Assembly: GCA_011051635.1 (NCBI GenBank)
Contig: DRKV01000086.1
Span: 1-27,431, forward strand
Reading direction: 5' to 3'
Source of the DNA: Chloroflexota bacterium
GTDB lineage: Bacteria > Chloroflexota > Anaerolineae > Anaerolineales > DRKV01
DNA: 27,431 nucleotides
Shown: positions 6,173 through 27,431 of the stretch, in pieces
How the letters are laid out: every line of letters starts with the position of its first letter
Position numbering within the stretch: position 1 is the first letter of the stretch
Position numbers and translations under genes: made by a program
The notes under the pieces: model-generated
What the model saw: the letters and a program-made list of their open reading frames with translations, nothing else
Told to the model about the DNA's origin: nothing
Databases searched by the model: none

Positions 6173-6194
6173 GGGCGATTTTCCTTTTGAATCT

Positions 6195-6272
6195 CCCCTC
6201 TCCTTTTGGGAGAGGGGCAGGGGGTGAGGGCTTACCCCCCTCTCCTTTTGGGAGAGGGGCAGGGGGTGAGGG
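6195..6272. repeat. Two identical 36-bp hairpin-containing repeats in tandem (period 42)
   Basis: cccctctccttttgggagaggggcagggggtgaggg at 6195-6230 and 6237-6272; each has the stem cccctctcc/ggagagggg. Confidence 0.9.
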
Positions 6273-6281
6273 AAAACGACG

Positions 6282-6304
6282 AAACCCGTCAGGTCTTTTT
6301 TGGA
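6282..6304. repeat. Half copy (right arm plus T6) of REP-like subfamily B
   Basis: aaacccgtcaggtcttttttgga is identical over 23 bp to 4704-4726; the left arm is absent. Confidence 0.85.
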
Positions 6305-6310
6305 GGGGAA

Positions 6311-8721: not shown

Positions 8722-8763
8722 AAGGGGCCTCGGGGAGAAATTGAAGAATCGGTGAGTGGGAAC

Positions 8764-8869
8764 TTGGTAATCGGGCAACCTGGGGATGGAGAAACCGGGG
8801 AAGCAGGAGATGGGCAGGGATTGGGGAGTGAAAATGTGGGTAACTCAACTGCCCCACTACCCAACTACC
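8764..8869. repeat. Degenerate short-period (~8 nt) intergenic repeat tract
   Basis: caactgcc/ccactacc/caactacc at 8846-8869; looser 8-mers ttggtaat, cgggcaac, ctggggat, ggagaaac, cggggaag, caggagat at 8764-8811. Confidence 0.4.
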
Positions 8870-10064: not shown

Positions 10065-10069
10065 GGCGC

Positions 10070-10990
10070 TTACCCCAGCAGTTGCGCCAGAATGGCCTTC
10101 TGGGCGTGGAGACGGTTGTGCGCCTGCGGGAAGAGACGGGAGTGCGGTCCGTCGGCTACCTCGTCGGTGATTTCCTGCCCCCGGTGGGCGGGGAGACAGT
10201 GCATCACAATCGCTTCGGGGGCGGCTTCGGCTACCAGGGCGGCGTTGACCTGGTACGGCGGGAAAACTTTGGCGCGTCGGGCGGCTTCCGCCTCCTGCCC
10301 CATGCTCGTCCAGGTGTCGGTGTAGATTACCTGCGCGCCTTTGACCGCCTCGTGCGGGTCGCGCAGGAAAGCGAGGGCGCTGCCCGATTCGGCGGCGAAC
10401 TTGCGGGCTTCGGCGATGCTCTCGGCGGGCATGTCGTAGCCTTCCGGGTTGGCGATTGTGAAATTGGCGCCCAGTTTGGCGCATACGTGCATCAGCGAAA
10501 CGGCCACGTTGTTGCCGTCGCCCACGTAGGTCACGTTGATACCCTTGAGGGTGCCGAATTCTTCCTGGATGGTGAGGGCGTCGGCCATCGCCTGGCAAGG
10601 GTGGTTGTAGTCGCTCAGGCCGTTGATGACGGGGATGCTGCTCCACTTCGCCAGTTCGACCACGTGTTCGTGGGCGAAGACGCGCGCCATGACGGCCTGC
10701 ACGTAGCCGGAGATGACGCGGGCCACGTCGGCGATGGATTCGCGCTTGCCCAGGCCGATTTCGGCGGGGGAAAGGTAGAGGGCGTCGCCGCCCAGATGCC
10801 GCATTGCCATGTCGAAAGAGACGCGCGTCCGCAAACTCGGCTTCTGGAAAATCATAGCCAGCACTTTGCCCTGCAAGATGGGCTTGTTGCCGCCCGATTT
10901 CCATTCGGCTTTCAGTTCTTCAGCCAGGTCGAGTAAATCCTGTAGTTCTTGAGATGGGTAGTCGGAAATTGCCAGGAAATCCTTTTTCAT
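10070..10990 (-). CDS. argF: Ornithine carbamoyltransferase
   Basis: [51 protein letters not shown]; SD AGGAG at 10997-11001. Confidence 0.96.
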
Positions 10991-11220: not shown

Positions 11221-14200
11221 GTGCTTTTGCAACAACTCAAACGTACCCTGCACCTGACCGATGCCCGCTGGGCGGCGTGGCTGTGGCGCGACCCGGATGG
11301 ATGGCGCTTCGGTATTCACGCGGGACTGACCCGCCCCCGCCGCAGAAGGCTGGAGACGCTTTTGGCGCGTTCATCCTGGCACAACTGGCTCTCGGGGGCG
11401 TTGACCAACAGACGCTCCCGCCGCCGCAAGGTGGATGCCGCCGCCTCCGAACTGGATTGCGGACGGGTGTACGCTTTCCCCGCAGAGAACGGGCAGGGAT
11501 GTCTCCTTGTGGGGGCGGATGAACTGGAGACTTCGGAACGGCATTTCTGGCAAATCCTGGCCTGGGAGCCGCCTTCCCAGCCGGTCAAGTACCATCCCGA
11601 ACCGGCGGCGGGGCAAGGCGCGCCGCGTCCCTTCGTCCTGCACACCTCGGTCTCCTACGATTTGGGCGTCGTCCTGGAGCAGGTTCTGGTTTTCCTCTCC
11701 GCCCGTCTGCCCTGCGCCGGCGGCCTGATTGCCCTGCGCTCCGGCAGACGTTTTGAGGTGCGTGCCGTCTGGCGCTTGCCGGACGCCTGGATTGGACAGG
11801 ATGTGGATTTGGAATCCGCCCTCGCCTTGCGGCGGATGGTCTCCCGCCGGCGGGTAGCCCTGTGGGAAGGCCCGCAAATGTGGAAAGGCGCGCCCGCCAA
11901 CGGAGAGCCGGACTGGGCTTTTGGGGAAAGCACCCAGTGGCTCGGCGTACCCCTCGTCCTGGGGCGGCGCGTCATCGGCGTGGCTTTGCTGGCAGCGCGC
12001 CCCGGTGAGCGCTTCAGCGAGGGCGATGTGCTCCATTTGCCGCGCCAGGCGGCTCAGGTGGCGCATCTTGTGGAGAATGCCATCGTCTTCGACGAGGCCG
12101 GGCGCTACCTCCGGCAACTTGCCCTGGTGAGCGAACTGGCCGCCGAGACGGTCGGCGAAGTGCGGCAGGAGAAAGTCATCCGCCGGGTGCTGCACCGCCT
12201 GGAGCGCACCTTCGACCACACCCAGGCCGCCCTCTTGACCCCTGGCGAGGAAGGCAACGGGGTGCTGCAAGCCTACGGGAACCGGGAGCCCCTCTGGGGC
12301 GCGCCCGTCGCACCGGACGCCCTTCCGGGGGGCGCGGCTTCGCTGGAGCGGGGCATCCCTTTACAGGGGGAGACGCTCCCCGAAGGGCTGGATTTCCCCT
12401 GGTTCCGCCGCCTTTCTTACGCTTACGTCCTCATGCCGATGCGCTACCGCGGGCATTTCATCGGGGCTATCCACATGGGGCGGACGCGTCCGCAGCCTTT
12501 CTCCCGGCAGGAGGAACAGGCTCTGGTCATGCTGGCGGGGCATCTGGCGGGCTTGCTGGAGAACGTGCGCCTGCACGCCGAGACACAGCAGCGCGCCGAG
12601 AACCTGGCTCTCATCCACACCGTCGTGCAGCGGGTGGTCGGCCTGACCTCCGTGGAGGAGATTGCCCAGGCCGCCGCCGAATTGATGGCCGCCAACTTTG
12701 CCTTCGACCGGGTGCTGATAGCCGGTATGCCCCCTTCCGGCGAACAGTTCACCGTCCTGGGATTGGCCGGCCTGGAAGTCGCTCCCGGCCTGCGGGGGGC
12801 GCGCTTCCCCGCCGCCTGCGGCCTGCTGGGGCGCGTCTTGCTGGATGGACGCAGTTTGCGGATTGGAAACCTGGACACAGACATGGCCTGCGAATCTCTG
12901 GAGCCGTTGCCGCAATCTGCGGTGATGGCGGTGCCGCTCTACGACGGAGAACGGGTGTTTGGAGCCTTGTATGTCGAACGGGTCGCCAAACCCTTCTCTT
13001 CTAACGACATGATAGCCTTGCAGGCCCTGGCGGGTGTGCTTTCCAGCGTGATGGTCAACGCCCAGCGCTATCAGCAGTTGCAAACCAGCGTGCGCCAATT
13101 GCAGGCCGTGCGGGAGACCGCCCTGGATATGGCGGGAGAGATGGATTTGGAAGTCCTCCTGCGGCGCGTCGTGCATCGGGTGCGCTTGCTGCTGGAAGCC
13201 AAAGGCGCGGAACTGGGGCTTGTGGATTCGGAAAGCGGCATGGTGCGGGTTGTCGTTTCCGAAAACCCCTGGCAGGATTACACGGGGCAGGAAGTCCCTA
13301 TGATGGGGGGCATCATCGGCCAAGTAGCCGCCCTGGGAGAACCGATGGTGGTCGCCGATTACAATCGCTGGGAGGGGCGTCTGCGCCCGGAAGGGCAGGA
13401 GCCTTTCTCCGCCGTGGTAGCCGTGCCCTTGCGCCTCAAGGGACAGGTGATGGGCGTCCTTTCGGTGAGCGACGATACCCCCGGACGCACTTTCCGCAGC
13501 GACGATGTGCGCCTGCTGGAGTTGCTGGCCCCGCAGGTCGCGGTCTTCATCCGCAACGCCCGCCTGTACCGCGAATTGCAGGAGCGGATGGCCGCTCAGC
13601 AAGAGACCGAACAGCAATTGGTGCGCTCGGCGCGGCTGGCTGCCGTGGGCGAGATGGCCGCCGGGGTAGCCCACGAACTCAACAACCCTCTTACCACAGT
13701 CTCCGGCTTCGTGGAACTGGTGCTGGATGAGTTGCCGGAGGATTGGCCGCAGCGCGCCGACCTGGAACTGGTGCTCAAAGAGGCGCGGCGCGCCCGCGGC
13801 GTGGTGCGCAATTTGCTGGAATTCTCCCGCCCCGGCGAAAACCTCCGCGTGCGTACCGATATGAACGCCCTGATTGGCGAAGTCCTGACCCTCGTGCAGC
13901 ACCTCATCCGCACCACCGGCGTGGAATTGCGCCTCCAGTTTTGGGAGGAAGTTCCCTGGGTGCGGGTTGACCCCAACCAAATCAAGCAGGTGCTTCTCAA
14001 CCTGGTACACAACGCTTTGCAGGCCATGCCGCACGGGGGAGTGCTCACCATCCAGACGGCGCACGGGCGCCGAGACAAAGAACGCTGGCTCACCGTGCGC
14101 GTTCAGGATACCGGCGTGGGCATCCCCGAGGAAAACCTGGCCCGCATCTTCGAACCGTTTTTCACCACTCGTCCCGTCGGTGCAGGAACCGGCCTGGGGC

Positions 14201-14316
14201 TTTCGGTCAGTTACGGCATCATCAAGGAACACGGCGGTTACATTGAGGTTGAAAGCCTCCTCGGCAAGGGGAGCGTCTTCCCCGTTTACCTGCCGGTAGA
14301 GAAAGACCATGCCTGA
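11221..14316 (+). CDS. Cytoplasmic multi-GAF sensor histidine kinase (4 GAF plus degenerate N-terminal GAF-like region, HisKA, HATPase_c)
   Basis: Four vPL...G.l......FS..D...L..lA...N motifs; [11 protein letters not shown]; [36 protein letters not shown]; no TM segment seen. Exact start uncertain. Confidence 0.92.
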
Positions 14317-15883
14317 AACCAAAATCCTCGTAGTGGATGACGAACCGGGCATCGCCCACCTGTGCGAGCGTCTTCTGCGGCGCGCCGGTTACGAGGCCCG
14401 GGCGGTCACCAACCCCCGCCGCGCCCTGCTGCACTTGCAAACCCACCCCGTGGATTTGCTCCTTGTGGACATCCGCATGCCCGGCATGGACGGCTTCGAA
14501 CTGATGCGGCAGGCGCGTCAAACTCTCCCCGACCTGGCAGTCGTCATCATGACCGGTTTCGGCACGGTGGAGACGGCCATCGAAGCCCTGCGCCTGGGCG
14601 CGGAGGGCCTGATTCTCAAACCTTTCTCCCGGGGGGCGGAACTGGTGGAAAGCGTCGCCCACGCGCTGGAAGCACACCGCCGCTCCCGCGATGCCCAGCG
14701 CCTCCGGGCCTTGCGCCCTCTCTTCGAAGTCACCCGCCGTCTCTTCTCCGAGACCGACCCGGAACAGTTGCGCCTTCTCCTTGTGGAGGCGGTTTGCGAA
14801 CATCTGCAATGTGAACATGCCGCCCTGTATGCCCTCCCTCGGAGTGGGAACGCGCCCCCGGAGTTGGAAGCCGCCCGCGGAGAGGTTCCGCCCCCCGGCG
14901 GCGGGTACGTGACGCATTTGTGGGAGGCCGCCGCCCGAGGGGTGGTAGCCCCTGGCAAAACGGATTCCGCCCCCCTCCCCCCCGAAATGGGGTACGCTTC
15001 CCTGGTGGCTGCCGCCGTTTCGGGGCCGCAAGTTTCCCGCCTTTTGCTGGCCGCCCGCAATCCCGAAAATCCTCCTTTCAGCGAAGCCGACCTGGAACTG
15101 CTGGTCGTCCTGGCGCATCAGGCCGCCGCCGCCCTGGAAAACGCCCGCCTGTACGCCGAACTGCGGGCCTACCTCCGGCAGGTGGAAGAATCGCAGCAAC
15201 TTCTCCTCCAGGCGGAGAAAATGGCGACCGCTGGCCGCCTGACGGCCTCCATCGCTCACGAAATCAACAATCCTCTGCAGGGGGTGCGGAACTGCCTGCA
15301 CCTGGCCTCTCGCGCCGAACTTTCCGAAATGGAGCGGGCAGAATACCTGCAACTGGGGCGCGAGGAACTCGACCGCCTGATGACTACGGTGCAGCGCATG
15401 TTGGAGTTTTACCGCCCCTCCGCCGTAGAGCGCAGCGCCGTAGACCTCCACGCCCTGATAGAGCGGGTCGTCAAATTGCTCCACCGCGAAATGGAGCAGC
15501 AGAACATCCGCCTGCACCTTTCCCTGAGCGAAGACCTGCCCCGACCCTGGGCGGTGCGCGACCAGATACAGCAGGTACTTCTCAACCTGGTACTCAACGC
15601 CGTCGAAGCCATGCCGGAGGGCGGCGATTTGCACATCGAGACGCGGTACAATCATGACGAGGTGCACATCACCGTGGCGGATAGCGGTCCCGGTGTGCCC
15701 CCTCACCTGCGCGGCCAAATTTTCGAGCCGTTTTTCAGCACGAAGGACGATGGCAGCGGCCTGGGCCTGACCGTCTGCGACGGCATCATCACCGCCCACG
15801 GGGGCCGCCTGGAACTGCTGGATTCGCCGGACGGCGGGGCGCACTTTCTGATTGCGCTACCCCTCCACTCGTCGGAGGAGTAA
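14309..15883 (+). CDS. Hybrid kinase REC-GAF-HisKA-HATPase_c
   Basis: ILVVDDE, LLVDIRMP, IMTGFG, ILKPF; GAF ending FSEADLELLVVLAHQAAAALENARLY; AHEINNPLQ; LNLVLNA, DSGPGV, GSGLGL. Overlaps the upstream kinase by 8 bp. Confidence 0.93.
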   Translation: MPETKILVVDDEPGIAHLCERLLRRAGYEARAVTNPRRALLHLQTHPVDLLLVDIRMPGMDGFELMRQARQTLPDLAVVIMTGFGTVETAIEALRLGAEGLILKPFSRGAELVESVAHALEAHRRSRDAQRLRALRPLFEVTRRLFSETDPEQLRLLLVEAVCEHLQCEHAALYALPRSGNAPPELEAARGEVPPPGGGYVTHLWEAAARGVVAPGKTDSAPLPPEMGYASLVAAAVSGPQVSRLLLAARNPENPPFSEADLELLVVLAHQAAAALENARLYAELRAYLRQVEESQQLLLQAEKMATAGRLTASIAHEINNPLQGVRNCLHLASRAELSEMERAEYLQLGREELDRLMTTVQRMLEFYRPSAVERSAVDLHALIERVVKLLHREMEQQNIRLHLSLSEDLPRPWAVRDQIQQVLLNLVLNAVEAMPEGGDLHIETRYNHDEVHITVADSGPGVPPHLRGQIFEPFFSTKDDGSGLGLTVCDGIITAHGGRLELLDSPDGGAHFLIALPLHSSEE

Positions 15884-15885
15884 TT

Positions 15886-15950
15886 CAGCGTACAGGGTAC
15901 GCTGTACGTAGTACGCCGCACATCGCACGTCGCACGTTTCGCACGTCTCA
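15886..15950. repeat. Degenerate heptamer tandem array with an internal hairpin
   Basis: cagcgta cagggta cgctgta cgtagta cgccgca catcgca cgtcgca cgtttcgca cgtctca; perfect 8-bp stem cagcgtac-agg-gtacgctg at 15886-15904. Confidence 0.8.
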
Positions 15951-15969
15951 CATTTTCTGGAGGTAATGC

Positions 15970-16755
15970 GTGAAAGGTAAAATCCTGGTTGTAGATGACG
16001 AACCCACCGCCCGCCGTTCCTGGCGCGATATTCTGCGTCTGGAAGGGTATCAGGTAGAGACGGCTGCGGACGGCAAGGCAGCCCTGGAGGCGATGAAGAA
16101 GACCGAATTCGATGTCGTCCTCCTGGATTTGAAGATGCCGGGCATGGGCGGGCTGGAGGTGCTGCGTACCGCCTCGAAACTGCATCCCGATACCCAAATC
16201 ATCGTTTTGACGGCGCACGGCTCGCTGGATTCGGCCATCGAAGCCTTGCGGCAGGGAGCGCACGATTACCTTCTCAAACCGGCCTCCCCGGAGGACGTCC
16301 TGGACAGCGTCGCCGGGGCGTTGGCTATCCGTGCTGAAACGCAACACAAGCGTTTGCTGCTGGGGCAACTCGAATCTTCCCTCCAGCAACTCAAGGATGC
16401 CGAAGGCTTGGAGGGGCAGCCCAGAGTCAATGTGCAGGTGGTCACGTTGGGCAACGGCATCATGATGGACATGGCGCGCCGTGAAATCTGGCGCGGCTCG
16501 GACAAGGTGACGCTGACCACCACGGAAGGCAAATTGATGCAGGTCTTGTGGGCGAACCGCGGACGGGTAATGACCCACCGGGAACTGGTGCTGCTCGTGC
16601 AGGGGTATGAAACTTCCGACTGGGAGGCCCCCGAAGTGCTGCGTCCCCTGGTCAGCCGCCTGCGCCGCAAACTGGCCGTCTTCCCCGGCGGGCGCGAGTG
16701 GATAGTCAACGTGCGCGGCACCGGTTACGTCTTCGAAGGCGTAGAGGAAAGATGA
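15970..16755 (+). CDS. Response regulator, receiver plus OmpR/PhoB-type winged-helix DNA-binding domain
   Basis: ILVVDDE, LLDLKMP, VLTAHG, LLKP; C-terminal LTTTEGKLMQVL...LVSRLRRKL...IVNVRGTGY; SD GGAGG at 15959-15963, GTG start. Confidence 0.94.
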   Translation: MKGKILVVDDEPTARRSWRDILRLEGYQVETAADGKAALEAMKKTEFDVVLLDLKMPGMGGLEVLRTASKLHPDTQIIVLTAHGSLDSAIEALRQGAHDYLLKPASPEDVLDSVAGALAIRAETQHKRLLLGQLESSLQQLKDAEGLEGQPRVNVQVVTLGNGIMMDMARREIWRGSDKVTLTTTEGKLMQVLWANRGRVMTHRELVLLVQGYETSDWEAPEVLRPLVSRLRRKLAVFPGGREWIVNVRGTGYVFEGVEER

Positions 16756-17612
16756 ACCCGCAAGATACGGGATACAGGAAGAAAACGATGACACGCACCC
16801 TGGACGAACTAACCCCCTTGCTGCAAGCCTTCCCCGAGGAGGAACGCCGCCTGATTTTGGAGCAGGCGGCGCGTTACGACCGCCTTCTGGCGCGACTCCC
16901 TATGGCTGGCGCGGGAGAACGGCGCGAAAAACCCCTCGCGGGCATCCTGGCGCTCAACGGAGCATCGGGCGCGGGGCAGAGTTATGTGATGAAGCGGGTT
17001 GCCCGCCTGCTGGAAGCGCGTTCCATCACCCTGCCTCGCATCTATCTCCTGGCGACGCGCAAGCCGCGTCCCGACGAGGGGTACAAGAACCCTTACATCT
17101 TCGTCGAGGCTGTCGAGGGCGGCTGGAGGGATATCTACCATCCCGAGACGGTTTATCGCCAGGAGGACATCTACTACCGCTATCAATCCCGCCCCGGTGC
17201 GGAGAACGCCATCCTGCTCTCGGATGCGCGCCTGGCGCGGGAGCGCATCATGTACTTGGAAACCGTCATCCCCACCCTGCTGCACATTCGCGAACACACC
17301 ATCAGGGGGATTCCCGCCTGGAAAGACAACCTGCGGATTGTGTACCTGGCCGCTCCGGATGGGTACGAGTGGGTTTACCGTCTGCTCAACCGCGAAGCGG
17401 GGAAACTCGTCGAGGAAGGCTACCGGCGCACGCTTCTGGGCCGGTTGGCCTCCTCGCTGGATGACATGGAACTGGCGGCAGAACACCGCATTCCTTGCGT
17501 GCTGAACCATTACGGCAAAGCCGAGCAGGCCGCCGAAGAAATCCTGAGCGTTTGGGGGTTGGGGGTCACCGCGGCTGCCAGGGAAAATCCGGGGGAAGCG
17601 AAGGGGGGCTAA
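16752..17612 (+). CDS. Guanylate-kinase-like P-loop protein with degenerate Walker A (GASGAGQS), ~286 aa
   Basis: ATGA overlap with the regulator stop (alternative ATG 16788). ILALNGASGAGQS; ATRKPRPDE..NPYIFV resembles GK TTRxPRxGE..YxFV; IVYLAAP and RLLNR resemble the GK core/lid. Confidence 0.7.
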   Translation: MNPQDTGYRKKTMTRTLDELTPLLQAFPEEERRLILEQAARYDRLLARLPMAGAGERREKPLAGILALNGASGAGQSYVMKRVARLLEARSITLPRIYLLATRKPRPDEGYKNPYIFVEAVEGGWRDIYHPETVYRQEDIYYRYQSRPGAENAILLSDARLARERIMYLETVIPTLLHIREHTIRGIPAWKDNLRIVYLAAPDGYEWVYRLLNREAGKLVEEGYRRTLLGRLASSLDDMELAAEHRIPCVLNHYGKAEQAAEEILSVWGLGVTAAARENPGEAKGG

Positions 17613-18552
17613 TCCAGCGCAACCAGCCGTGCGGCGTAGGGCGCGGCGGGTTGCGGTCTATGCTCGCCAGGAGGATGTTTACCATCAGGAGGATAGCCCC
17701 CGTCCATTGCAAAACGGTCAGGCGCTCGTGCAGAAGGAGGTGCGCTCCCAGCACGGTCACCAGCAATTCCCCCAGCCCAATCAGGGCGGTTTGCATTCCT
17801 CCCAAGTGTTTGACCCCCAGGAAGAGTGTCAGACGAGACACAAACGTCACCAGCGTCAAACCCAGAACGGCGCCCCAGGCTTGGGGCTGAGGCTCCGGAA
17901 TGACTTTCCCGAAACTGGTGAACAGGTAGGCCGAAAGCACCACCATGCTCATCGAGAGCAGAGTGTAGAGCGTCACGGTTGGGGCGGGCATGTCGTAGAG
18001 GACACGCTGGTTGATGGGGAGATGCAGGGCGTAGAGCGCCGAGGCTCCCAACATCAGGAAGATGCCAACCCAGTCCACCTGCCCCGAGGCGGTCTGTAAG
18101 AGCAGATAAACGGCGGGGATAGCCAGCATCAGGCGGGCGATGGTGATACGGTTCGGGGGTTGACCGTCCAGCCACAACCATCCGGCCACAAAAAGGGGGT
18201 AAATGGAATACAGCAGTTGCCCTAAACTGGCATCGATGCGCCCCAATGCACTGTAAAAGAGCAGAGAACCCAGCCCGTTGACTCCCCCGGCCAGGGCGCA
18301 GCCCAACAGCCCGGCGGGATAAATGTACAGATAACTGCGTTTGAAGAGCAGTAAACTGAGCGCAAGCAGCAGCGCAGCCAGGATGGTACGCAACGCCACA
18401 ACCGTCAGCGGATGCATCCCAAAGACGATGGCTTGTTTCCCGAAGACAGGAGTCATCCCCATGAAAAGCGCCGATGCAAGGGCCGCTCCCAGCCCTTGCA
18501 TCCGTTTTTTTTCTTGGTGGCGGTCGTGTCCCTGGGCGGTCTTACTCATCAT
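17566..18552 (-). CDS. DMT/EamA family transporter
   Basis: About 10 hydrophobic helices in two repeats; ALRTILA, LLFYSALGRIDASLGQLLYSIYPLFVA, FLGVKHLG...LLLHERLTVLQWTGAILL. Start uncertain (18552, 18549 or 18501). Confidence 0.9.
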   Translation of the reverse strand: MMSKTAQGHDRHQEKKRMQGLGAALASALFMGMTPVFGKQAIVFGMHPLTVVALRTILAALLLALSLLLFKRSYLYIYPAGLLGCALAGGVNGLGSLLFYSALGRIDASLGQLLYSIYPLFVAGWLWLDGQPPNRITIARLMLAIPAVYLLLQTASGQVDWVGIFLMLGASALYALHLPINQRVLYDMPAPTVTLYTLLSMSMVVLSAYLFTSFGKVIPEPQPQAWGAVLGLTLVTFVSRLTLFLGVKHLGGMQTALIGLGELLVTVLGAHLLLHERLTVLQWTGAILLMVNILLASIDRNPPRPTPHGWLRWISPPSLPPDFPWQPR

Positions 18553-18605
18553 GGACGCCGGACGCGTGGTATCGTCGTGGGGATGTCATCTGGAGGTGCA
18601 TACAT

Positions 18606-20285
18606 CTATTCATCTACCAGCGAGCGGATTTCATCGGCTAAATCATCGCTCATGAACTCCCCTTTCTGCATCAGGGAGTGCACTTGTCCTTTCAGGCGGC
18701 GTTTCTCCGCCGGCGTGAGCGTCTTGGCCGTTACCACGATGACGGGGATTTCGGCGGTCTCTTCGTTTTCCTTGAGGGCGTCCAGCACGCCAAAGCCGTC
18801 CACTTCGGGCATCATCAAATCGAGAATCATCAAGTCCGGCTTCTCCCTGCGCGCCAGTTCGATGGCCTGGCGTCCATTCTCGGCCTCGAAGATGGTGAAG
18901 TCTCCCTGGGCTTGCAGGATGCGCCGAATCAGGCGGCGGGCGTCGGCAGTGTCGTCCACGATAGCGACCCGCGGGTAGCGGTCAGCGGTGAGACGATGGA
19001 GGGCGGAGAGCAGCCCCTCTTCGGGGCCGGGTTCCCGAACCGCGGCGGCCTGCCGCGAAACAACCAGGTTGCGCGCCCATCCCTCTCCGAGAACGGTGCG
19101 CTCGATGGGAATGGTGTGCCCCGTGCAATTGACGACCACAACCTCGTCCGGGCGAATCTCGCCGTTGCGCACCATGTTGAACAAACCGGCAAAGGCTACT
19201 GCGGTAGCGGGTTCCACCGAAAGCCCTTCCATCTTGGCGAGGATGTGCATGGCCCGGAAGGCTTCCTCGTCGCTCACGCTGGCGAAGGTTCCTCCATACG
19301 TTTTGGCGTGCTGGTAAAGCAGGTTGTAGGTTCGTCCCGGCGCGCCGGTCGCCAGGGTAGCGATGTGGGTGCGCGGTGAGGGGATAGGGGTGGCCTCCGG
19401 CTGGTCGGCCTCCCAGGCCCGCGCCATAGGGGCGCATCCGGCGGTCTGGATGTTAGCCAGGGCGGGGATTTTGTTCACCAAACCCATGGCATACAGTTCG
19501 CGGAAGCCTTTGGCGACCCCTTGCGGCCCCAATCCGCCGCTGACGGACTGGACGTACCAGTCCGGGGCGCGCCACGGGGCGGAGCCGTCTTCCGGGGGCC
19601 CCAGCCTTTGGGTCAGTTGTTCGGATATTTCCAGCGCCAGGGTTTTCATGCCCTCCACGGAGGGGATGGATTTGGAGCCGCGAGAGTAGTAAAGACCGCG
19701 CTGGCGGGCAAACTCGGCGGCCATTTTCTTGGCCTGGTCGTAAGTGGCCGTCACTTTGACCACTTGTGTCCCGTACAAGGCCACCTCGCGCATCTTTTCC
19801 GGCGGCACCAGGCTGGTCAGGAAAGCCCACAACTTGATGCCGGCGCGGGCGGCGTAAGCGGAGAAGGAAATGGCGACGTTTCCCGTGGAGGCCAATACCG
19901 CCTCTGTAATGCCCGCTTCCTTGAGCGCCGAGATTTCCAGGGCGGCCTGGCGGTCTTTGAAGGAATTTGTCGGTCCCTGACGCTCATCCTTGATGTAGAT
20001 GTTTTCGTTGCCCAGCATCATTCCCAGGTTGACCGCCCGTACCAGGGGAGTACCGCCTTCTCCCAGGGTCAGGTCTTCGTTGACGTTTCGGATGGGGAGC
20101 ACTTCCCGATAGCGCCACAAGTTAAAAGGACGTTTTTCCAGGCGCTCAATGAATCCCTCCCGGATGCTTTGGAGGTCGTAATGGGCCTCAAGCCAGATGC
20201 TTCCGCATTTGGGGCAGGCATATTGCATGGGGTGATAGGTGCTGCGGTGTCCGCAGTCCATGCATTGGGCGGTAAAGTGGGACAT
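18606..20285 (-). CDS. Threonine-synthase-like PLP enzyme (N-terminal Zn ribbon) fused to a C-terminal response-regulator receiver domain
   Basis: CMDC...CPKC; WRYREVLP, LGEGGTPL, KDERQGPTNSFKDR (PLP Lys codon 19956-19958), ASTGN, EGMKT, EGLSVEPATA; then VAIVDD, MILDLMMP, IVVTA, MQK (receiver, ~18606-18974). SD AAGGAA at 20292-20297. Confidence 0.92.
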   Translation of the reverse strand: MSHFTAQCMDCGHRSTYHPMQYACPKCGSIWLEAHYDLQSIREGFIERLEKRPFNLWRYREVLPIRNVNEDLTLGEGGTPLVRAVNLGMMLGNENIYIKDERQGPTNSFKDRQAALEISALKEAGITEAVLASTGNVAISFSAYAARAGIKLWAFLTSLVPPEKMREVALYGTQVVKVTATYDQAKKMAAEFARQRGLYYSRGSKSIPSVEGMKTLALEISEQLTQRLGPPEDGSAPWRAPDWYVQSVSGGLGPQGVAKGFRELYAMGLVNKIPALANIQTAGCAPMARAWEADQPEATPIPSPRTHIATLATGAPGRTYNLLYQHAKTYGGTFASVSDEEAFRAMHILAKMEGLSVEPATAVAFAGLFNMVRNGEIRPDEVVVVNCTGHTIPIERTVLGEGWARNLVVSRQAAAVREPGPEEGLLSALHRLTADRYPRVAIVDDTADARRLIRRILQAQGDFTIFEAENGRQAIELARREKPDLMILDLMMPEVDGFGVLDALKENEETAEIPVIVVTAKTLTPAEKRRLKGQVHSLMQKGEFMSDDLADEIRSLVDE

Positions 20286-20322
20286 GCTGGCTTCCTTATG
20301 TTTGGTTATGGTGAAGTTCAGG

Positions 20323-20352
20323 AAGATACTGCGTTGTCAGGGGGGTAAGCAA
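20323..20352 (-). promoter_or_regulatory. Possible sigma70-type promoter TTGCTT-N18-TATCTT upstream of the PLP-REC gene
   Basis: Minus-strand hexamers at 20347-20352 and 20323-20328; weak match only. Confidence 0.2.
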
Positions 20353-20411
20353 TCGCCGCTGTGGCATTGCGAGGGATTGCCAGGCCGCCTTCGGCAACAA
20401 TTGCATTTGGG

Positions 20412-23400
20412 TCAGGATGTGGAACTATCTCTTTCTGCGTTGCCCAGATTGGCAAGCAGTTCTTCAAGATGGTTCAAGAAGTCTTCTTCGTGAAGTTCGG
20501 ATTTGTGGATAAAGGCCTGACTCTTCTCCTTGAGGTAGGCGCGCTGCTCGTCGGTCAGGTCGCCGCCGGTCAGAATGAGAACTGGCAGGTTGTGCAAGCG
20601 CGGGTCGCTGCGGATAGTCTCCAGCAGGGTGAAGCCGTCCAGGTCGTGCATATACAGGTCCAGGATGACGGCATCTGGGGTGCTGCTTTGCAGGACGCTT
20701 AGAGCGGCTTGTCCTCCGGGAGCGAGCATAGGCTCGTAGGCGGTGTGCTCCTCGATGATGCGCTCCACCAGGCGCAAATCGTCGTCGGAGTCATCCACTA
20801 CCAAGACGCGGTGGATGTCGCCGTTTCTATCCAGCCGTTGCAAAGCGCGTACCAGGTCCTCCTCCAGAATAGGTTTGACCAGGTAATCGGTGGCACCCAG
20901 GCTGAAGCCCTTTTCTTCTTCCCGCACGATACTGCATACGAGTACGGGGATGTCCCGGGTTTCGGGGGTGCTCTTCAAGGCTTCCAATACGGCCCAGCCA
21001 TCTATGTTGGGCATCATGATGTCCAGTGTGATGGCGTAGGGATGCAGTTCCCTGGCACGTTCTACGGCCTCAGCCGGGTTGGTGAGGGCTACTACCTGGT
21101 ATCCGTGGTTGCTCAGGTAGCGCTCATACAAGTTGATAACCTGAGTGTTGTCGTCTATAGCGAGAACTACTTTGGGGGCGGGAGATTCTGCTTCCTCGGG
21201 GGCGGCTTGGGGAGCCTCCTCGTCTGGGGGCGCATCCTCTGGTGGAGACGGCGAATCTTCCGGAGAGGTAATGGGCAACGTGAACCAGAAGGTGCTGCCT
21301 TTCCCTACTTCGCTTTCCACGCCAATTTGACCGCCGTGCATTTCGATGAAACGCTTGGAAATGGAGAGGCCCAGGCCGGTGCCGCCCGTCTTGCGGGTAG
21401 GCGACCCGTCCACCTGGGAGAAGGGCTTGAAGAGTTTGCTCTGGTCTTCGGGAGCGATTCCGGGGCCGGTGTCCTCGACGGCGATGTACACTTCCTGCCC
21501 GCCCTTTTGGGAGGGGCGCACTTTGGCAATTACCTTGATATGCCCTTCTTCGACAAACTTGGAGGCGTTGGATATCAGGTTCAGCAACACTTGCCGGACG
21601 CGGGTATTGTCGCCAACCACAACGGGCAGGTTGTCATCGACTTCTCGCAGCAATTGGATGGGCTTGTCCTTGGTCAAGCCAACCGCGGTGGACATGACGC
21701 TCTTCACCATCATGTTGAGGTCAATCTCTTCTTGGGCAATTTCCATCTTGCCCGCCTCAATCTTGGAGAGGTCGAGGATGTCATTGATAAGCGAGAGCAG
21801 GTGCTGTCCGGAATTGTAGATAGCACTCAGGTCTTGTTCTTGCAGTTCGTTGATGGGACCGTCAATGCCCTTCAGGATGACGCGCGAAAAACCGATGATG
21901 GAGTTGAGCGGCGTGCGCAACTCGTGTGACATATTCGCCAGGAACTGAGTCTTGAGGGTGTCCACCTCTTTCAAGCGTTCCGCGGTTTCGCGCTGTTCCT
22001 GATAGAGACGGGCGTTCTCCAGCGATACCGCTGCCGAAGATGCTACTGCCATGGCCAGGTCTAACTGACTTTCGGAGAAATGCCGCTTTTCATCGGGAAC
22101 TTCCACTTCAACAACGCCCAGGGCTTCACCTTTGGCGGCCAGCGGGACGATGAGCAGCGTTTGCAGCCCGTGTTCTCGCATGTAGCGGCGTTCTTCAGGG
22201 TGCAGGTCGGTATCCGATGTGAGCGTGACTGGCTCGAGGGTTTGCAGCACCTCGTCAAGTAATTTGGCCCTCCACAGGTGAGATATTTCTCCTATCTCAT
22301 GGAGGGGGGCAGGGGCATCTTTGCGCCTGTGGATACCAACGATGCGCATCGTCGGACGGTAAACCTCGTTGAATTCGTCATATTCGTTTAGGATGACCGA
22401 CAGAGTACAGGAGGGGGCATCCAACAAGCGGGAAAACTGTTCTGTGATGATGCGAGCCAGCCCTTCGATTTCCAGGGGCGCACTGGAGAGGGTACGGCTG
22501 ATTTCGAACAGCAGGCTCATTTCCTGGGCTCGCTGGTTCGCCAGTTCGTAAGAGCGGGCGTTATCTACGGCGATAGCCAACTGGTCGGAAAGGATTTGCA
22601 GAGCGGGCAGGTCTTCTTGGGTGAAGGCCTGGGGCCGGGTGCTGTGCAAATCTACCACCCCAATGATGCGGTTGCCGACTTGCAGCGGCAGACAAAGTTC
22701 TGAGCGGGATTTTGGCAGGTCCTCAGGTACCGAGAAACGCTCGTCGGTTTGTAAATCATCTACGTTGAGTGTTTGCCCTGTGGAGGTCACCTGCCCAATG
22801 ACCGTGGAGGCCCCAACGACGTGCTGCGTGGCTTTCCTCAGGAGGGCTTCTGCCCCGGCCCCGGCGGCAGAACGGATGACCACGTTTAGCCGAGATTCAT
22901 CCATCAGGTAGATGGCGCCGTGATAGAGGTTGAAACGTTCCCGAATCAGCGTAATGGCGCGGTCCAGCAGTTCTCCCAGGGAGAGAGTGCCGGTGGTCTC
23001 GCGGGCAATTTGTGAGGCGGTCTGCAATTGGAGGGCGCGGCGCTCGCTCTCCTGACGGGCCTCACGTTGAGCCAGGTATGCCCGGCGGCGGGCGACTACT
23101 TCAGCGAGAGGCCGCAGCAAGTTGCGAAGCAGGAAATCTTCTTCTTCGGTGAAACTGTGCGGCTGGCGCCAATTGAGGATGGCAAGCCCCTGGAGCCTCC
23201 CGCCGCTCTGCAGGGCGAGCATAGCCATGCCGCGCATGCCGGCTTGCTTGGCTATCTGGCGGGCGGCGGAGGGAGCCTGGGGGTTCTCCAAAACGTCTTC
23301 GAAAAAGATGGGCGCGTCCAGGCGGATGCTATTCTGGAAGGCCTGCATTTCTTTCGTGAGCAAGTTCACCCGGTAAGGGTTTTCATCGTGAAGCACCTGC

Positions 23401-26400
23401 CCGTCCAGCCAGTGGGCGACTGAATCGGAATAGAGCAACTTCCCCTGCTCGTCGGAGTAAATGTAACGCAAGGTAATCAGGTCGGGGCGGCGTTTCTCAT
23501 CAGCCGCGACCAGGCTCAGGGCAGCCACGATTTCATCTTCGTTGTTGGCTTGCGAGAGCGCGGTTTGCACTTGCGCCAGGTGCTCCAACTGGGCGGCGCG
23601 TTGTTGGGCCGCCTCCGTATTGCGCAGGTTCTGCATGACCGCCGCGGCCTGGACCGCCAGAGTTTGCAGACGACGGAGTTCGTCCTCGGGGAAGCGGGTT
23701 GGCTTGGTGTAAACCGCGTTGATGTAGCCAATCCACTGCCCGGCTGTCAGCAGGGGGACAAAAATGACACTGGTTCCGCCGAGTTCCTGCGTGTAGAGCG
23801 CACGGGTATTCTCGTCCAGCCGGGGGTCGGTGCGCGCATCCTCAATGATGGTAGGCTGGTTAGAGCGCAAGATATGCCGCGCCGCGGGGAATTCGGACAG
23901 GCGGTAACGGACAGGTAAGCCCATTGCTCCTTGGGGACGCCAGAAAGTGTGAGCAATGCTCCATTCGGGCATCTCGTCTATCCAGGGGCGGTTGAAAAGG
24001 TTGATGGAAACCAGGTTGTCAACCTGGCTGAGGATGGTGCGCTCTCGCAAGGCTTCCAGTACGTCCTCGTAAGACTGGGAGGCGTTGAGGGCCGCGCTGG
24101 CCTCGTAAAGGGATTCCGTCTCGCGGAGGCTGGTTTGGGCCTGGTCGAACAAGCGGGCGTTCTGGATGGCGATGGCAACCTGGTCGGCCATGGTTTGCAG
24201 GACGGCGATGTCTTCCTGCGAAAAGGCGTTGGTGAATTCGCTCTGGATGGTCATCGCCCCGATGACCTCGCCGCGGGCAATCAGGGGCAAGGCCAATTCG
24301 GAGCGGGTATCGGGCAGGAGGGGGTTCTGGAAGCGCCCCGTCTCTTGCAAAACGTCCAGCGAAACGCGGGCCTGGCCGTGGGCCACGCACTGTCCAATCA
24401 TGGAAGTTCCGCCGATTTCCAATTTATGCCCGCGTGCCTTCATCTGCAAGCCGGCGACGCCGGTTCCAGCACGTAATACTGCCCAGCGACCGGGTTCCTG
24501 GGTCCACTCTCCCTCTTTGTCCACCAGGAACAGACCGGCGTAGTAGAGGTCAAAACGTTCCTGCACCAGGTTGACGATTTCTTGAATCAGTTCGTTGACA
24601 TCCAGGATGCTGCTGGCGGCACGGGACACTTCGGCAGCCGTCTGGAGTTGGCGGGCACGGCGCTGCGTTTCCTGGAGCAGGTTGTAGTTATCCAGCGCGA
24701 TGCTGGCCTGCACGACGATAGATTCGTAGAACAGGATTTCTCGCTCGGTGAAGGAGTGCGGCTGCTGGTAGGCGACAAGCAGTTGCCCGGGAATGCCGTC
24801 TCTGGTGCGCAGAGGCACGGCGTTCATAGCCGCCACGGAGAATTCAAGCAGCAGAGAGCGCTCTTCGGGAGTGAATTGCGGGTCGTTGGCGACATCGTCG
24901 CTGGTGACGCGCTTCCCTGCCTGTAATTGCCGGGTGTAGGGGTACAGGTCTGTAGGGAATAAAGTGCCGTCCTCAGGCGCCGAGACATTCGGCTGGGTGC
25001 GGTGATAAGCCTGTTCCAGAAACGATTCAGCACCCATGTGTTTGAAGCGCTGGATAGCGGCCACGTCGGGGGCGTTGAATTCCTGGCAGGTTTCCAGCGC
25101 GGCTTCGAAGATACTCTGTTCGCTTTGGGCCTGTACCAGGCTTTGGGTAGCCCGGAAGAGAAGAGTAGCGTCCTGTGCTTGTTGGCGGGTGGTTTCCAGG
25201 TTGCGCAAGTTTTGGATGGCAATAGCGGCCTGGCTGGCTAATGCCATCAGGCGGCGCTGCTCTTTTTCCGGATAAACTCTCCGCTCTCTGGAAATAGAAG
25301 TTGCCATCCCTATCCAGCGCCCTGCTACCACGAGAGGGACGAACATGCCGCTCTTGGCTTTGTAGACCTCCGTGTACAGGTGGCGTAAATTCTCGTCTAC
25401 ATCCGGATGGGTACTGAAATCCTCTATGACGGTGGGGCTGTCCGGATGCAGGAGCTGTTTTGCTGAAGCGAAAGCGCTCAGAGAGTAGCGTTCCTGAAGG
25501 AATCCGGCGGGTACGGACGCGTCTGTGATTTCTCGACCCAGAACTATCCACCACTGGGCGGGATTATCCGGCTCCCAGGGGCGGTCGAAAATGCCGATGT
25601 TGGCGTTGGCATCTCCCGCGCCCAGGATGGTGTGGCGGTACAGCACATCCAGAATGTCGGCGTATGTCTGGGCTGTGTTGAGTTCCGCGCTGGCAGTGTA
25701 GAGCGACTCCGTCTCTTTCAAACTCTCCTGGATTTGCTGGAAGAGACGGGCGTTCTGAATGGCGGTGCTGGCTTGGGCGAGAATGCTTTGAACGGGGCGG
25801 ATTTCATCCGAGCGCAAGGGGCGTTTGGCGGAATGTATCAGAACGTCAACTATCCCGATAACCTCATCGCCCAGCAGGATGGGGAAGAACGCGATGGATA
25901 CGACGCCGGCTTGTTTGAGACGTTCGTGAAGCGGCGCGGTATGGGGGTTGTGCTGGGCATCGGGAACTTCCAGTATCTTTTTGGTTGCCAGAACTTCTTG
26001 AATAGCGGGAAAGCGGTGAATTTCCATGCCCGCCTCGACGGGGCGTACCCCTTTCTCGGTGTGTACGCTGTGGACGACGACGCCGTCTCTTTCCTCGTTG
26101 ACAAGGCCGATGCCTATATCCATCTTCAGGTATTCATGCAGAGCAGATGCGATGGTGTGGAGAGTCTCGTCCAGGTCCAGGGAGGAGGCCAACCGACTTA
26201 CCAGGCGGTTGATAAAGGCCAATTCATCGGTGCGGCGGGTACTTTCCTGGAAGAGACGGGCGTTCTCCAGAGCGTTGGCAATCTGGTCGGCCATTGTTTG
26301 CAGGACGGCGATGTCATCCGGACTGAAGTCGCCCGGACGCTCGCTCTGGAAAGTCATCGCCCCGATGACCTCGCCGCGGGAAATCAGGGGCAGCGCCATT

Positions 26401-27431
26401 TCAGAGCGCGTCTTGGGCAGCAAGGGGTTGACGTAACGTCCAACGTCTCCGCTTTCGTCGCCGCGCCAGATTTGTGCCTGCTTGTTGAGGATGCAACGCC
26501 CAATCATGGACTTGGCGTCCAGGGCCAGTTTGTGTTGACGGCTGAGCATTTTCTGTCCCGCTTCGCCCGTACCGGCGCGCAGCACAGCCCAGCGATTGGC
26601 TTCTCCTGTCCATTCTCCCGTGCGGTCTACGAGGAAAAGACCGACGTAGTACAGATTGAAGCGCGAGCGAATCAGGGCGGCGGTGCCGTGAGCCAGTTCA
26701 TCAGGTTCCAGGATACTGCTGGCGGTGCGGGAGACCTGAGCGGCGGTTTGGAGTTGCAGACTGCGGCGCTCGATAGCCCGGCGGATGGCTTGTTCGCTCA
26801 AATAGGCGCGACGGGTGGCTATCAGCGCCGCGAGCGGTTCAATCAACTCGTTGAGATAAAAGGCCTCGTCCGGCGTGAGTTCGTTTTCTCCGGGCCAGGT
26901 GATGAGCAGCAATCCGTGCCACGCGCCCGTGCTGTAGAGGGGGAGAATGGCGGCACTCTGTCCTAAAGGAACTTGCAAAAGACGCTGACACAACCCGGTT
27001 AAAGGGTCGTCCGCCTTCAAGGCGGAGGCCATATACAACTTGTCGCGTCCCTCTGTCCACAACGGGAGGGTTTGGAAGGCGGCCAATTCCACCGGTTGCG
27101 CGTCCTCTGTGGGGACGATAAGACCGTCCATCCATTGGGCTTGCATGGTGGCCGCCACGGGGGTGCCGCGGTCGTTGTTATCCAGGTAAAAGAGGGCAAT
27201 GTGCTCCGGCGGGGTGGAAATATCCAGCGCCATGCTAAAAGCAGAGATGATGTCGCCTTCCGACTGGGCCAGCGAGAGGCTGTCCTTGATGAGAGAGAGC
27301 CACTCCAGTTGGCGGGTGCGTTCCTGGGCCTGTTCGAAGAGCAACCGGCTGTTGAGAGCAGTGGCGGCCTGGGCGGCGACTGCCGCATAGCGTTCCTTGT
27401 CCTGTTGGGTGAAAAATGTGGTTTTGGGCCA
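20412..27431 (-). CDS. Giant cytoplasmic hybrid histidine kinase (>=10 GAF, HisKA, HATPase_c, two receivers); 5' part outside the window
   Basis: Frame is open to the window edge (WPKTTFFTQQDKERYAAVAAQAATALNSRLLFEQ, the end of another GAF), so >=2339 aa. FLANMSHELRTPL; LNLISNA, DTGPGI, GGTGLGL; REC1 IDD/LDIMMP/KP; REC2 VDD/LDLYMH/LTGG/HK. Confidence 0.95.
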   Translation of the reverse strand, partial: WPKTTFFTQQDKERYAAVAAQAATALNSRLLFEQAQERTRQLEWLSLIKDSLSLAQSEGDIISAFSMALDISTPPEHIALFYLDNNDRGTPVAATMQAQWMDGLIVPTEDAQPVELAAFQTLPLWTEGRDKLYMASALKADDPLTGLCQRLLQVPLGQSAAILPLYSTGAWHGLLLITWPGENELTPDEAFYLNELIEPLAALIATRRAYLSEQAIRRAIERRSLQLQTAAQVSRTASSILEPDELAHGTAALIRSRFNLYYVGLFLVDRTGEWTGEANRWAVLRAGTGEAGQKMLSRQHKLALDAKSMIGRCILNKQAQIWRGDESGDVGRYVNPLLPKTRSEMALPLISRGEVIGAMTFQSERPGDFSPDDIAVLQTMADQIANALENARLFQESTRRTDELAFINRLVSRLASSLDLDETLHTIASALHEYLKMDIGIGLVNEERDGVVVHSVHTEKGVRPVEAGMEIHRFPAIQEVLATKKILEVPDAQHNPHTAPLHERLKQAGVVSIAFFPILLGDEVIGIVDVLIHSAKRPLRSDEIRPVQSILAQASTAIQNARLFQQIQESLKETESLYTASAELNTAQTYADILDVLYRHTILGAGDANANIGIFDRPWEPDNPAQWWIVLGREITDASVPAGFLQERYSLSAFASAKQLLHPDSPTVIEDFSTHPDVDENLRHLYTEVYKAKSGMFVPLVVAGRWIGMATSISRERRVYPEKEQRRLMALASQAAIAIQNLRNLETTRQQAQDATLLFRATQSLVQAQSEQSIFEAALETCQEFNAPDVAAIQRFKHMGAESFLEQAYHRTQPNVSAPEDGTLFPTDLYPYTRQLQAGKRVTSDDVANDPQFTPEERSLLLEFSVAAMNAVPLRTRDGIPGQLLVAYQQPHSFTEREILFYESIVVQASIALDNYNLLQETQRRARQLQTAAEVSRAASSILDVNELIQEIVNLVQERFDLYYAGLFLVDKEGEWTQEPGRWAVLRAGTGVAGLQMKARGHKLEIGGTSMIGQCVAHGQARVSLDVLQETGRFQNPLLPDTRSELALPLIARGEVIGAMTIQSEFTNAFSQEDIAVLQTMADQVAIAIQNARLFDQAQTSLRETESLYEASAALNASQSYEDVLEALRERTILSQVDNLVSINLFNRPWIDEMPEWSIAHTFWRPQGAMGLPVRYRLSEFPAARHILRSNQPTIIEDARTDPRLDENTRALYTQELGGTSVIFVPLLTAGQWIGYINAVYTKPTRFPEDELRRLQTLAVQAAAVMQNLRNTEAAQQRAAQLEHLAQVQTALSQANNEDEIVAALSLVAADEKRRPDLITLRYIYSDEQGKLLYSDSVAHWLDGQVLHDENPYRVNLLTKEMQAFQNSIRLDAPIFFEDVLENPQAPSAARQIAKQAGMRGMAMLALQSGGRLQGLAILNWRQPHSFTEEEDFLLRNLLRPLAEVVARRRAYLAQREARQESERRALQLQTASQIARETTGTLSLGELLDRAITLIRERFNLYHGAIYLMDESRLNVVIRSAAGAGAEALLRKATQHVVGASTVIGQVTSTGQTLNVDDLQTDERFSVPEDLPKSRSELCLPLQVGNRIIGVVDLHSTRPQAFTQEDLPALQILSDQLAIAVDNARSYELANQRAQEMSLLFEISRTLSSAPLEIEGLARIITEQFSRLLDAPSCTLSVILNEYDEFNEVYRPTMRIVGIHRRKDAPAPLHEIGEISHLWRAKLLDEVLQTLEPVTLTSDTDLHPEERRYMREHGLQTLLIVPLAAKGEALGVVEVEVPDEKRHFSESQLDLAMAVASSAAVSLENARLYQEQRETAERLKEVDTLKTQFLANMSHELRTPLNSIIGFSRVILKGIDGPINELQEQDLSAIYNSGQHLLSLINDILDLSKIEAGKMEIAQEEIDLNMMVKSVMSTAVGLTKDKPIQLLREVDDNLPVVVGDNTRVRQVLLNLISNASKFVEEGHIKVIAKVRPSQKGGQEVYIAVEDTGPGIAPEDQSKLFKPFSQVDGSPTRKTGGTGLGLSISKRFIEMHGGQIGVESEVGKGSTFWFTLPITSPEDSPSPPEDAPPDEEAPQAAPEEAESPAPKVVLAIDDNTQVINLYERYLSNHGYQVVALTNPAEAVERARELHPYAITLDIMMPNIDGWAVLEALKSTPETRDIPVLVCSIVREEEKGFSLGATDYLVKPILEEDLVRALQRLDRNGDIHRVLVVDDSDDDLRLVERIIEEHTAYEPMLAPGGQAALSVLQSSTPDAVILDLYMHDLDGFTLLETIRSDPRLHNLPVLILTGGDLTDEQRAYLKEKSQAFIHKSELHEEDFLNHLEELLANLGNAERDSSTS

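Follow-up and report, generated by a model that had tools for sequence, protein, structure and literature searches.

A Chloroflexota gene trio encodes a hybrid histidine kinase, a threonine synthase-like enzyme with a receiver domain and an EamA transporter, a candidate two-component system with an enzymatic output

We analyzed a 27,431-nucleotide stretch of DNA (GenBank contig DRKV01000086.1; hereafter, the window) that represents one entire contig (C86) of an Anaerolineales metagenome-assembled genome, 85% complete and 2.7 Mb in size. Three genes on the minus strand form the right end of the window. They encode a hybrid sensor histidine kinase, the N-terminus of which is cut by the contig end (20412-27431; 2339 residues visible), a pyridoxal phosphate (PLP)-dependent enzyme of the threonine synthase (ThrC) family with a C-terminal receiver domain (18606-20285; 559 residues), and a transporter of the EamA/drug-metabolite transporter (DMT) family (17566-18552; 328 residues). 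The kinase and the transporter were assigned by their open reading frames, Pfam matches and orthologues, and the enzyme by Pfam, NCBIfam, homologues, an AlphaFold2 model and fold matches. The original prediction, made from the sequence alone, had described three consecutive minus-strand genes separated by gaps of 126 and 53 bp, an enzyme carrying its own phospho-acceptor and a DMT-family transporter as the third gene; the open reading frames, the intact receiver residues of the enzyme and the two EamA matches in Pfam confirmed these points. In the 126-bp spacer between kinase and enzyme (20286-20411), a Shine-Dalgarno sequence (AGGAAG) is located 5 nt before the ATG of the enzyme gene, and no promoter-like or terminator-like site was seen on the coding (minus) strand; an internal terminator was likewise not seen on this strand in either spacer. 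Being on the same strand with short spacers and no internal terminator, the three genes show the layout of a predicted operon. Scanning the window against Rfam resulted in zero matches at the gathering threshold, so that no riboswitch gave a clue to the substrate of the enzyme.

The enzyme matches the Pfam families PALP (residues 73-389, 228 bits) and Response_reg (residues 440-542, 74.8 bits). Thousands of full-length homologues share this architecture and are publicly annotated as "threonine synthase", "pyridoxal-phosphate dependent enzyme" or "hypothetical". Its N-terminus carries a zinc ribbon (C8, C11, C24, and C27; 20205-20264, minus strand), recognized by conservation and by having the same N-terminus as the archaeal proteins Q8TQD4 and Q58860; in the family alignment (A1), C11, C24, and C27 are invariant and C8 is nearly so. 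Alignments and motif scoring placed the PLP domain at residues 73-389 (19119-20069, minus strand) and the PLP lysine at K110 within the motif SFKDR. A linker of about 40 residues, predicted to be disordered (18969-19118, minus strand; AlphaFold2 local confidence [pLDDT] below 50 for residues 391-427), connects this domain with the receiver (residues 440-542; 18660-18968, minus strand). By Pfam and conservation, the receiver possesses D444/D445, the phospho-acceptor D489, T519, and K541, and D445, D489, and K541 are invariant over 32 sequences, down to 46% identity. With this residue set present and a histidine kinase encoded alongside, the sequence identifies the domain as a receiver of the response-regulator type, and the AlphaFold2 model of the enzyme (pLDDT 81; predicted template-modelling [TM] score, pTM, 0.70) places it as a (beta-alpha)5 domain. 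The PALP match, the invariant K110 and the fold matches given below indicate a fold-type II PLP fold with the Schiff-base lysine. Complex prediction for the PLP domain (residues 1-400) and the receiver (residues 432-559) gave a score of 0.00, which speaks neither for nor against docking. A special kinship of the enzyme's receiver with the last receiver of the kinase was considered and dropped, as the two share 31% identity while other regulators of the genome reach 45-47%.

The kinase contains GAF (8 significant stretches), HisKA, HATPase_c, and two Response_reg matches in Pfam. It combines a HisKA domain with H-box, a HATPase_c domain and a fused receiver, and is thus a hybrid kinase. The catalytic core (21267-21953, minus strand) consists of HisKA (residues 1827-1894, H-box SHELRTPL) and HATPase_c (residues 1940-2055) and shows 57-91% identity in orthologues. 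Downstream of the core, two C-terminal receivers (20457-21167, minus strand) were identified by Pfam and in the translation, with the DD, D, T/S, and K positions all present. Upstream, residues 1-1806 (22014-27431, minus strand) form a GAF array. Pfam searches on sub-segments and a hidden Markov model built from the kinase's own GAF domains resolved ten GAF-like units and the tail of a truncated eleventh at the contig end, bearing out the claim of at least ten GAF domains in the sensor. Since the kinase of the nearest relative with a complete gene (L009) is 3407 residues long, about one third of the kinase gene is probably absent from the window. The description as a "giant GAF sensor kinase" holds true for the gene in the window, but not for the family: the length of the orthologous kinases ranges from 761 to 3407 residues, the GAF array varies widely in length, and the partner kinases of other lineages carry dCache/HAMP/PAS sensors or membrane anchors instead of the array. 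Most orthologous kinases are without N-terminal hydrophobic segments, and a few are membrane-anchored. Two receivers were present in 55 of 76 close orthologous kinases, one in 20 and none in one.

To describe the conservation of the unit, we used a set of 80 species-level genomes that encode the fused enzyme at 58-95% identity, among them the cultured Anaerolinea thermolimosa IMO-1 (L045). The kinase core is located directly upstream and on the same strand in 76 of the 80 loci (57-91% identity to the window), and an orthologue of the EamA gene directly downstream and on the same strand in 74 (48-91% identity). Most loci that lack either neighbor are contig ends, and elsewhere only short spacers separate the genes, or they overlap. 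The adjacency of the three genes, a conserved unit in the Anaerolineae, is far beyond chance, and the linkage across Chloroflexota, which the original prediction had named as a check, was thereby found. In a sample of 301 Chloroflexota genomes, the fusion was detected in 33, comprising 19 of 19 genomes of one family and members of several further families of this class. It also occurs, at 46-57% identity, in two families belonging to other classes, and some genomes possess a second fused copy at 48-50% identity.

Conserved gene order among related genomes overstates independence, and the adjacency could in principle reflect chance or inherited synteny with no functional link. The more distant copies argue strongly against this. 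In 13 of 14 distant or paralogous loci, a histidine kinase gene lies immediately upstream of the enzyme gene, and in the fourteenth (L102), a REC-HisKA kinase is encoded between the enzyme and the EamA gene. Kinase and enzyme genes also stay paired in paralogues and in Chloroflexota of other classes at 44-56% identity, the adjacency surviving even at 44-50%. The EamA orthologue tracks the enzyme over at least 15 families, also where the two genes are unlinked, and occurs in three relative orientations (see below). We regard a chance association as having next to no probability. In the paralogous copies and in a family of another class (f35), the partner kinase has no receiver of its own. Examples are a 624-residue GAF-HisKA-HATPase protein (L091) and an 1877-residue dCache-HAMP-GAF-PAS-HisKA-HATPase protein (L097). 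The invariant core of the system is the HisKA kinase together with the receiver-enzyme, to which the sensor array and the receivers of the kinase are added as interchangeable accessories.

The surroundings of these deep-branch copies are variable, and a common theme among the genes on their 3' side was sought and discarded, as none was shared. At four loci (L092-L095, e.g., L092:7704-8822), a ThrC-like PALP gene without a receiver (29-33% identity) follows the paralogous receiver-enzyme (47-50% identity) in place of an EamA gene. At a locus from another Chloroflexota class, the receiver-enzyme and EamA genes have a gene for a PAS-GAF-STAS protein between them (L099:9667-11151). The STAS domain at this locus suggests an input to the module of the partner-switching or anti-sigma-antagonist type.

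The best family and fold matches of the enzyme are threonine synthases. The top sequence matches were 2ZSJ, 2D1F, and 1UIM, with about 35% identity over the HMMER local alignment and 28-31% identity to threonine synthases in structural alignments. The AlphaFold2 model reached TM scores, by hit, of 0.82-0.84 to solved threonine synthase structures and of 0.86 to the archaeal Zn-ribbon ThrCs Q8TQD4 (Methanosarcina acetivorans) and Q58860 (Methanocaldococcus jannaschii). These matches, together with some orthologues that pass the threonine synthase model TIGR00260 by a small margin and the established ability of Escherichia coli RhtA, a DMT/EamA protein, to export threonine and homoserine, would suit regulated housekeeping threonine synthesis coupled to RhtA-like export of threonine or homoserine. 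The enzyme of the window itself scores 142.1 bits on TIGR00260, under the cut-off of 167.1, and 252 on PRK08197 (NF006050), under its cut-off of 303. The canonical ThrC of the same genome is encoded on another contig (C266; 305 bits on TIGR00260). The same division was found in five of five other near-complete genomes that carry the fusion, each with a separate ThrC of 297-331 bits and a fused copy of 158-189 bits. Neither hom nor thrB was found among the window proteins by Pfam. Further, the fusion is patchy across Chloroflexota, as its presence in 33 of the 301 genomes shows, and the EamA protein reaches no characterized transporter model.

The active site points in the same direction. We aligned 77 family members with the canonical ThrC of the window's genome and compared them with 2ZSJ and 2D1F in HMMER alignments. 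The motifs STGNT, NSxNPxR, GNAGN, and TGxGLK are present in both structures and in the genome's canonical ThrC, whereas all four are substituted family-wide in the fused enzymes. In the window, STGNT is replaced by STGNV, NSxNPxRxEGQKT by GSKSIPSVEGMKT (which contains GSKSIPS), PVGNAGN by VSGGLGP, and TGxGLKD by TGHTIP. K110, the PLP lysine, is invariant, as are the STGN loop and the EPA motif, and R102 (in KDER), C284 (in GCAPM), and H390 are newly invariant in the fused family. The structure of Thermus thermophilus ThrC with a substrate analogue was reportedly described by Omi and colleagues in 2003. The swapped positions correspond to what we take to be the Thr, Asn, Ser, Arg, and Asn residues gripping the substrate phosphate, and these substitutions around the phosphate speak against a housekeeping role. 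Because a canonical ThrC is encoded elsewhere, the scores fall below the cut-offs and the motifs are lost, the enzyme does not appear to be the housekeeping ThrC, and we consider threonine synthesis for this purpose very improbable. By its sequence, the fused protein looks instead like a specialized, ThrC-derived enzyme with a rebuilt pocket. O-phosphohomoserine is probably not its substrate, and the automatic label "threonine synthase" is probably wrong for the receiver-fused enzyme.

The rebuilt pocket is not restricted to receiver-fused proteins. A HMMER scan of 1.8 billion cluster representatives was followed by motif scoring of 126 full-length representatives, and 23 of these carry the motif set of the fused family. 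In a FastTree phylogeny rooted on canonical ThrC, the motif-bearing sequences form one clade (support 1.0) and the receiver-fused forms a sub-clade of it (support 0.99), which includes one standalone protein and some fragments. The standalone clade members are found in settings of specialized metabolism. Their neighbors encode an ATP-grasp ligase, glycosyltransferases, a methyltransferase with an epimerase, a radical-SAM/SPASM protein with a TauE permease, or housekeeping functions, and hom or thrB was never found beside them in the contexts examined. The search for a shared pathway was dropped given the heterogeneous neighborhoods. This ThrC sub-clade with its rebuilt pocket, itself uncharacterized, may hold new PLP chemistry.

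Several individual members and relatives deserve mention. On a metagenome contig (L106, 2091-4989), a gene run encodes an unknown 619-residue protein, a standalone ThrC-like protein, a radical-SAM/SPASM protein, a TauE/SafE permease, and an Fe-alcohol dehydrogenase, a possible sign that the sub-clade performs sulfonate or sulfur chemistry. Two metagenomic representatives (P0126 and P0127, 708-715 residues) are fused enzymes with two tandem receivers after the PLP domain. A ThrC-like group with the motif LAGDY.FR.EGQKS (P0171, P0193, P0196, P0210, P0215, P0229, P0251, and P0273; 611-633 residues) possesses an uncharacterized C-terminal extension of about 200 residues. Additionally, the genome of the window (G000) encodes a third ThrC-like paralogue (contig C285:388-1599; L002:301-1740) of 479 residues, which is of the Zn-ribbon type and contains an insertion. 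It barely exceeds the TIGR00260 cut-off (172.5 versus 167.1) and adjoins an ATP-binding cassette (ABC) ATPase resembling a putative B6 transporter.

We propose that the trio encodes a two-component system in which the enzyme serves as the response regulator, with a signal path from the kinase to the receiver-enzyme, and with the transporter as an additional component. We assign this reading a probability of roughly 60%, based on sequence features and gene linkage. The mostly cytoplasmic multi-GAF kinase would autophosphorylate on the HisKA histidine, and the phosphoryl group would pass directly from there to D489 of the enzyme's receiver. The one or two receivers of the kinase itself could act as accessory sinks or modulators. 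Phosphorylation would then alter the activity of the PLP domain via the flexible linker, probably by dimerization of the receiver or by its docking and release. The substrate would more likely be an amino acid that is unphosphorylated or bears another substituent, with beta- or gamma-elimination or replacement as the reaction, and the EamA transporter may carry the product out or the substrate in.

Some observations weigh against this proposal. Most of the orthologous kinases are hybrids with one or two receivers of their own, which usually implies a His-Asp-His-Asp relay via a histidine phosphotransfer (HPt) domain, and an HPt domain for such a relay was not found in the locus. Some fused orthologues marginally exceed the TIGR00260 cut-off (168-189 bits), the assignment of the swapped motif positions to the substrate phosphate is presumed rather than confirmed, and the EamA gene is absent from several lineages that retain the kinase-enzyme pair (the paralogous copies and family f35). 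With regard to the relay, a search of the 85% complete genome for HPt (PF01627) gave matches only inside two other large kinases. We favor direct transfer without the need for an HPt domain, because the partner kinases of the deep-branch copies are without any receiver, and direct His-to-Asp transfer from kinase to enzyme is plausible from the predicted domain content.

The two receivers of the hybrid kinase would also fit a different signal path, in which the receiver-enzyme is a phosphate sink or a metabolite-sensing branch whose PLP domain reports the amino-acid status, and in which the real output is a neighboring transcriptional regulator. A convergent cassette on the plus strand (11221-16755; Pfam) encodes a GAF kinase (11221-14316), a REC-GAF kinase (14309-15883), and an OmpR-type DNA-binding regulator (15970-16755), and is found at the equivalent convergent position in about 30 of the 80 loci. 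It is missing from over half of the loci, and from the deep-branch copies, whose signaling genes are limited to those of a plain kinase and the receiver-enzyme. Invariance of the PLP lysine and of the cofactor-binding loops is what would be expected for an active enzyme. For these reasons, we consider a sink or sensing role with OmpR output very unlikely. The original prediction had stated that the module contains no DNA-binding regulator. This stands for the three genes themselves, but the OmpR-type regulator is encoded about 800 bp past the transporter gene. The output of the proposed two-component system is probably post-translational, with no gene switching, since the enzyme itself carries the phosphorylation switch and the unit encodes no DNA-binding protein.

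The transporter gave an EamA score of 89.5 bits over two stretches in Pfam, and its two EamA repeats and 9-10 hydrophobic segments assign it, by sequence, to the DMT/EamA family. Its start may be M18, since the orthologues align only from residue 10-25. No characterized transporter model was matched above threshold (TIGR00950, 40.8 bits versus 230), and no solved relative was found in the PDB. We compared the distribution of enzyme (E <= 1e-100) and EamA orthologue (E <= 1e-40) in a class sample of 121 genomes. The enzyme was present in 36 genomes and the EamA orthologue in 30. Both were encoded in 28, the enzyme alone in 8, and neither in 83, while the two genomes with the EamA orthologue alone are both at most 85% complete and belong to families that otherwise carry the enzyme. 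In 17 of the 28 genomes with both, the genes lie within 1.5 kb of each other, in same-strand, convergent or divergent orientation, and in the other 11 they are unlinked. Related genomes in this sample are not independent, and the pattern spans at least 15 families. The co-occurrence is good evidence for a functional link between enzyme and EamA protein and carries no information on the direction of transport or on the substrate.

We tentatively assume that the EamA protein moves the product of the enzyme out of the cell, a view to which we give somewhat less than even odds. The module could alternatively import its substrate and break it down or detoxify it under control of the signal, for instance by deaminating or desulfhydrating an amino-acid analogue from outside the cell. 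DMT/EamA members are established to include both importers and exporters, and the co-occurrence data, being silent on direction, suit import equally. ThrC-family enzymes can also deaminate, as threonine deaminase activity is reported for a cyanobacterial ThrC (PMC12172450). Among the characterized bacterial relatives of EamA with amino-acid substrates, exporters are established to be the majority, which speaks against import, and we consider this variant unlikely.

Assuming export, the proposed two-component system can be extended to the production, on a signal, of a non-proteinogenic amino acid or an amino-acid-derived signal. The kinase would integrate metabolic cues, the ThrC-derived enzyme, with new chemistry, would be activated by phosphorylation within seconds, and the EamA protein would release the product to neighboring cells of the filament or community without any transcription step. 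We regard this extended scenario as speculative and rather improbable.

The remaining genes of the window were not assigned to the core. Further to the left of the OmpR cassette, the minus strand encodes a class-III aminotransferase, an alanine dehydrogenase (AlaDH)-like protein, an acetyl-CoA hydrolase/transferase, and a pyruvate kinase. These four were rejected as parts of the module, since only about 6-8 of the 80 loci have any one of them within 10 kb. We take the OmpR cassette and the block from aminotransferase to pyruvate kinase as lineage synteny. The block (4739-10904, minus strand) is syntenic with the module in L083, L016, L024, L010, and L046. In L083 and L016, its genes directly follow the EamA gene (in L083, on the same strand at +1.2 to +4.6 kb), and in some lineages the operon may extend into the block. 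Within the class-III aminotransferase (8865-10904, minus strand), the Aminotran_3 match starts at residue 293 and the N-terminal approximately 290 residues have no Pfam match; the start may have been called too far upstream, or an unidentified domain may be fused. An open reading frame of 304 residues (16698-17612, plus strand) shares sequence with the end of the OmpR gene and, through its own 3' end, about 47 bp with the convergent EamA gene. Pfam assigns it no domain, and a homologue was found in only one of the 80 related loci (L013, 83% identity). The far left of the window encodes a surface-type protein of 1401 residues (417-4622, plus strand) with DUF11, four SdrD_B repeats, CarboxypepD_reg, and GEVED domains.

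In textbooks, two-component systems regulate transcription, motility and second messengers. If the proposed system is true, direct control of a PLP-dependent amino-acid enzyme by phosphorylation would widen this range to primary or specialized metabolism. The Anaerolineaceae, filamentous anaerobes that are abundant in digesters, sediments and the subsurface, are poorly understood. The module is nearly universal among them, being present in 19 of the 19 genomes sampled from one family, and probably serves an important part of their physiology.

Among known systems, threonine synthase (EC 4.2.3.1; Q8TQD4, Q58860, 2ZSJ, 2D1F, and 1UIM) shares with the fused enzyme its fold, the zinc ribbon, SFKDR, the STGN loop, and EPA(A/S). 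The fused enzyme differs in being only 28-35% identical, in the replacement of four motifs, in being an extra paralogue beside a canonical ThrC, and in its C-terminal receiver, which is not known from any characterized ThrC. The threonine synthase of Arabidopsis thaliana (2C2B), one of the fold matches of the model, likewise joins a ThrC fold to a regulatory input via an appended region. In the plant enzyme, which is a bona fide threonine synthase, S-adenosylmethionine binds an N-terminal extension, whereas phosphorylation of a receiver is proposed here. Recruitment of the ThrC fold for other beta- or gamma-replacement chemistry is known from cysteate synthase (TIGR03844; CapA2, 9K3C), which also has a Zn-ribbon N-terminus. 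The fused enzyme reaches 99.9 bits on TIGR03844, against a cut-off of 324.9, with an identity of 21-24%. According to the citing text in PMC12172450, the ThrC-like MetM, another case of the fold being recruited for a different replacement chemistry, belongs to an O-phosphohomoserine-dependent methionine route. Cysteate synthase and, as far as that text describes it, MetM differ from the fused enzyme in their phosphorylated substrates and in having no receiver. The window's transporter shares two EamA repeats and 9-10 hydrophobic segments with the amino-acid exporters EamA, RhtA, and YddG, but matches no characterized member above threshold.

Our literature search for the receiver fusion or for ThrC-like enzymes with receivers found no description of either. 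The closest parallels in signaling are the CheB methylesterase, the diguanylate cyclases PleD and WspR, and the HD-GYP protein RpfG, in which a receiver is likewise joined to an enzyme and the output is post-translational. As in these enzymatic response regulators, the receiver residues are intact and a histidine kinase gene is adjacent, features that are known here from sequence alone. The system differs from CheB, PleD, WspR, and RpfG in its output, which is a PLP amino-acid enzyme and not a signaling or second-messenger enzyme, and in the C-terminal position of the receiver. Response regulators with enzymatic outputs are thus already known, while a PLP amino-acid enzyme as the output, with a C-terminal receiver, is new.

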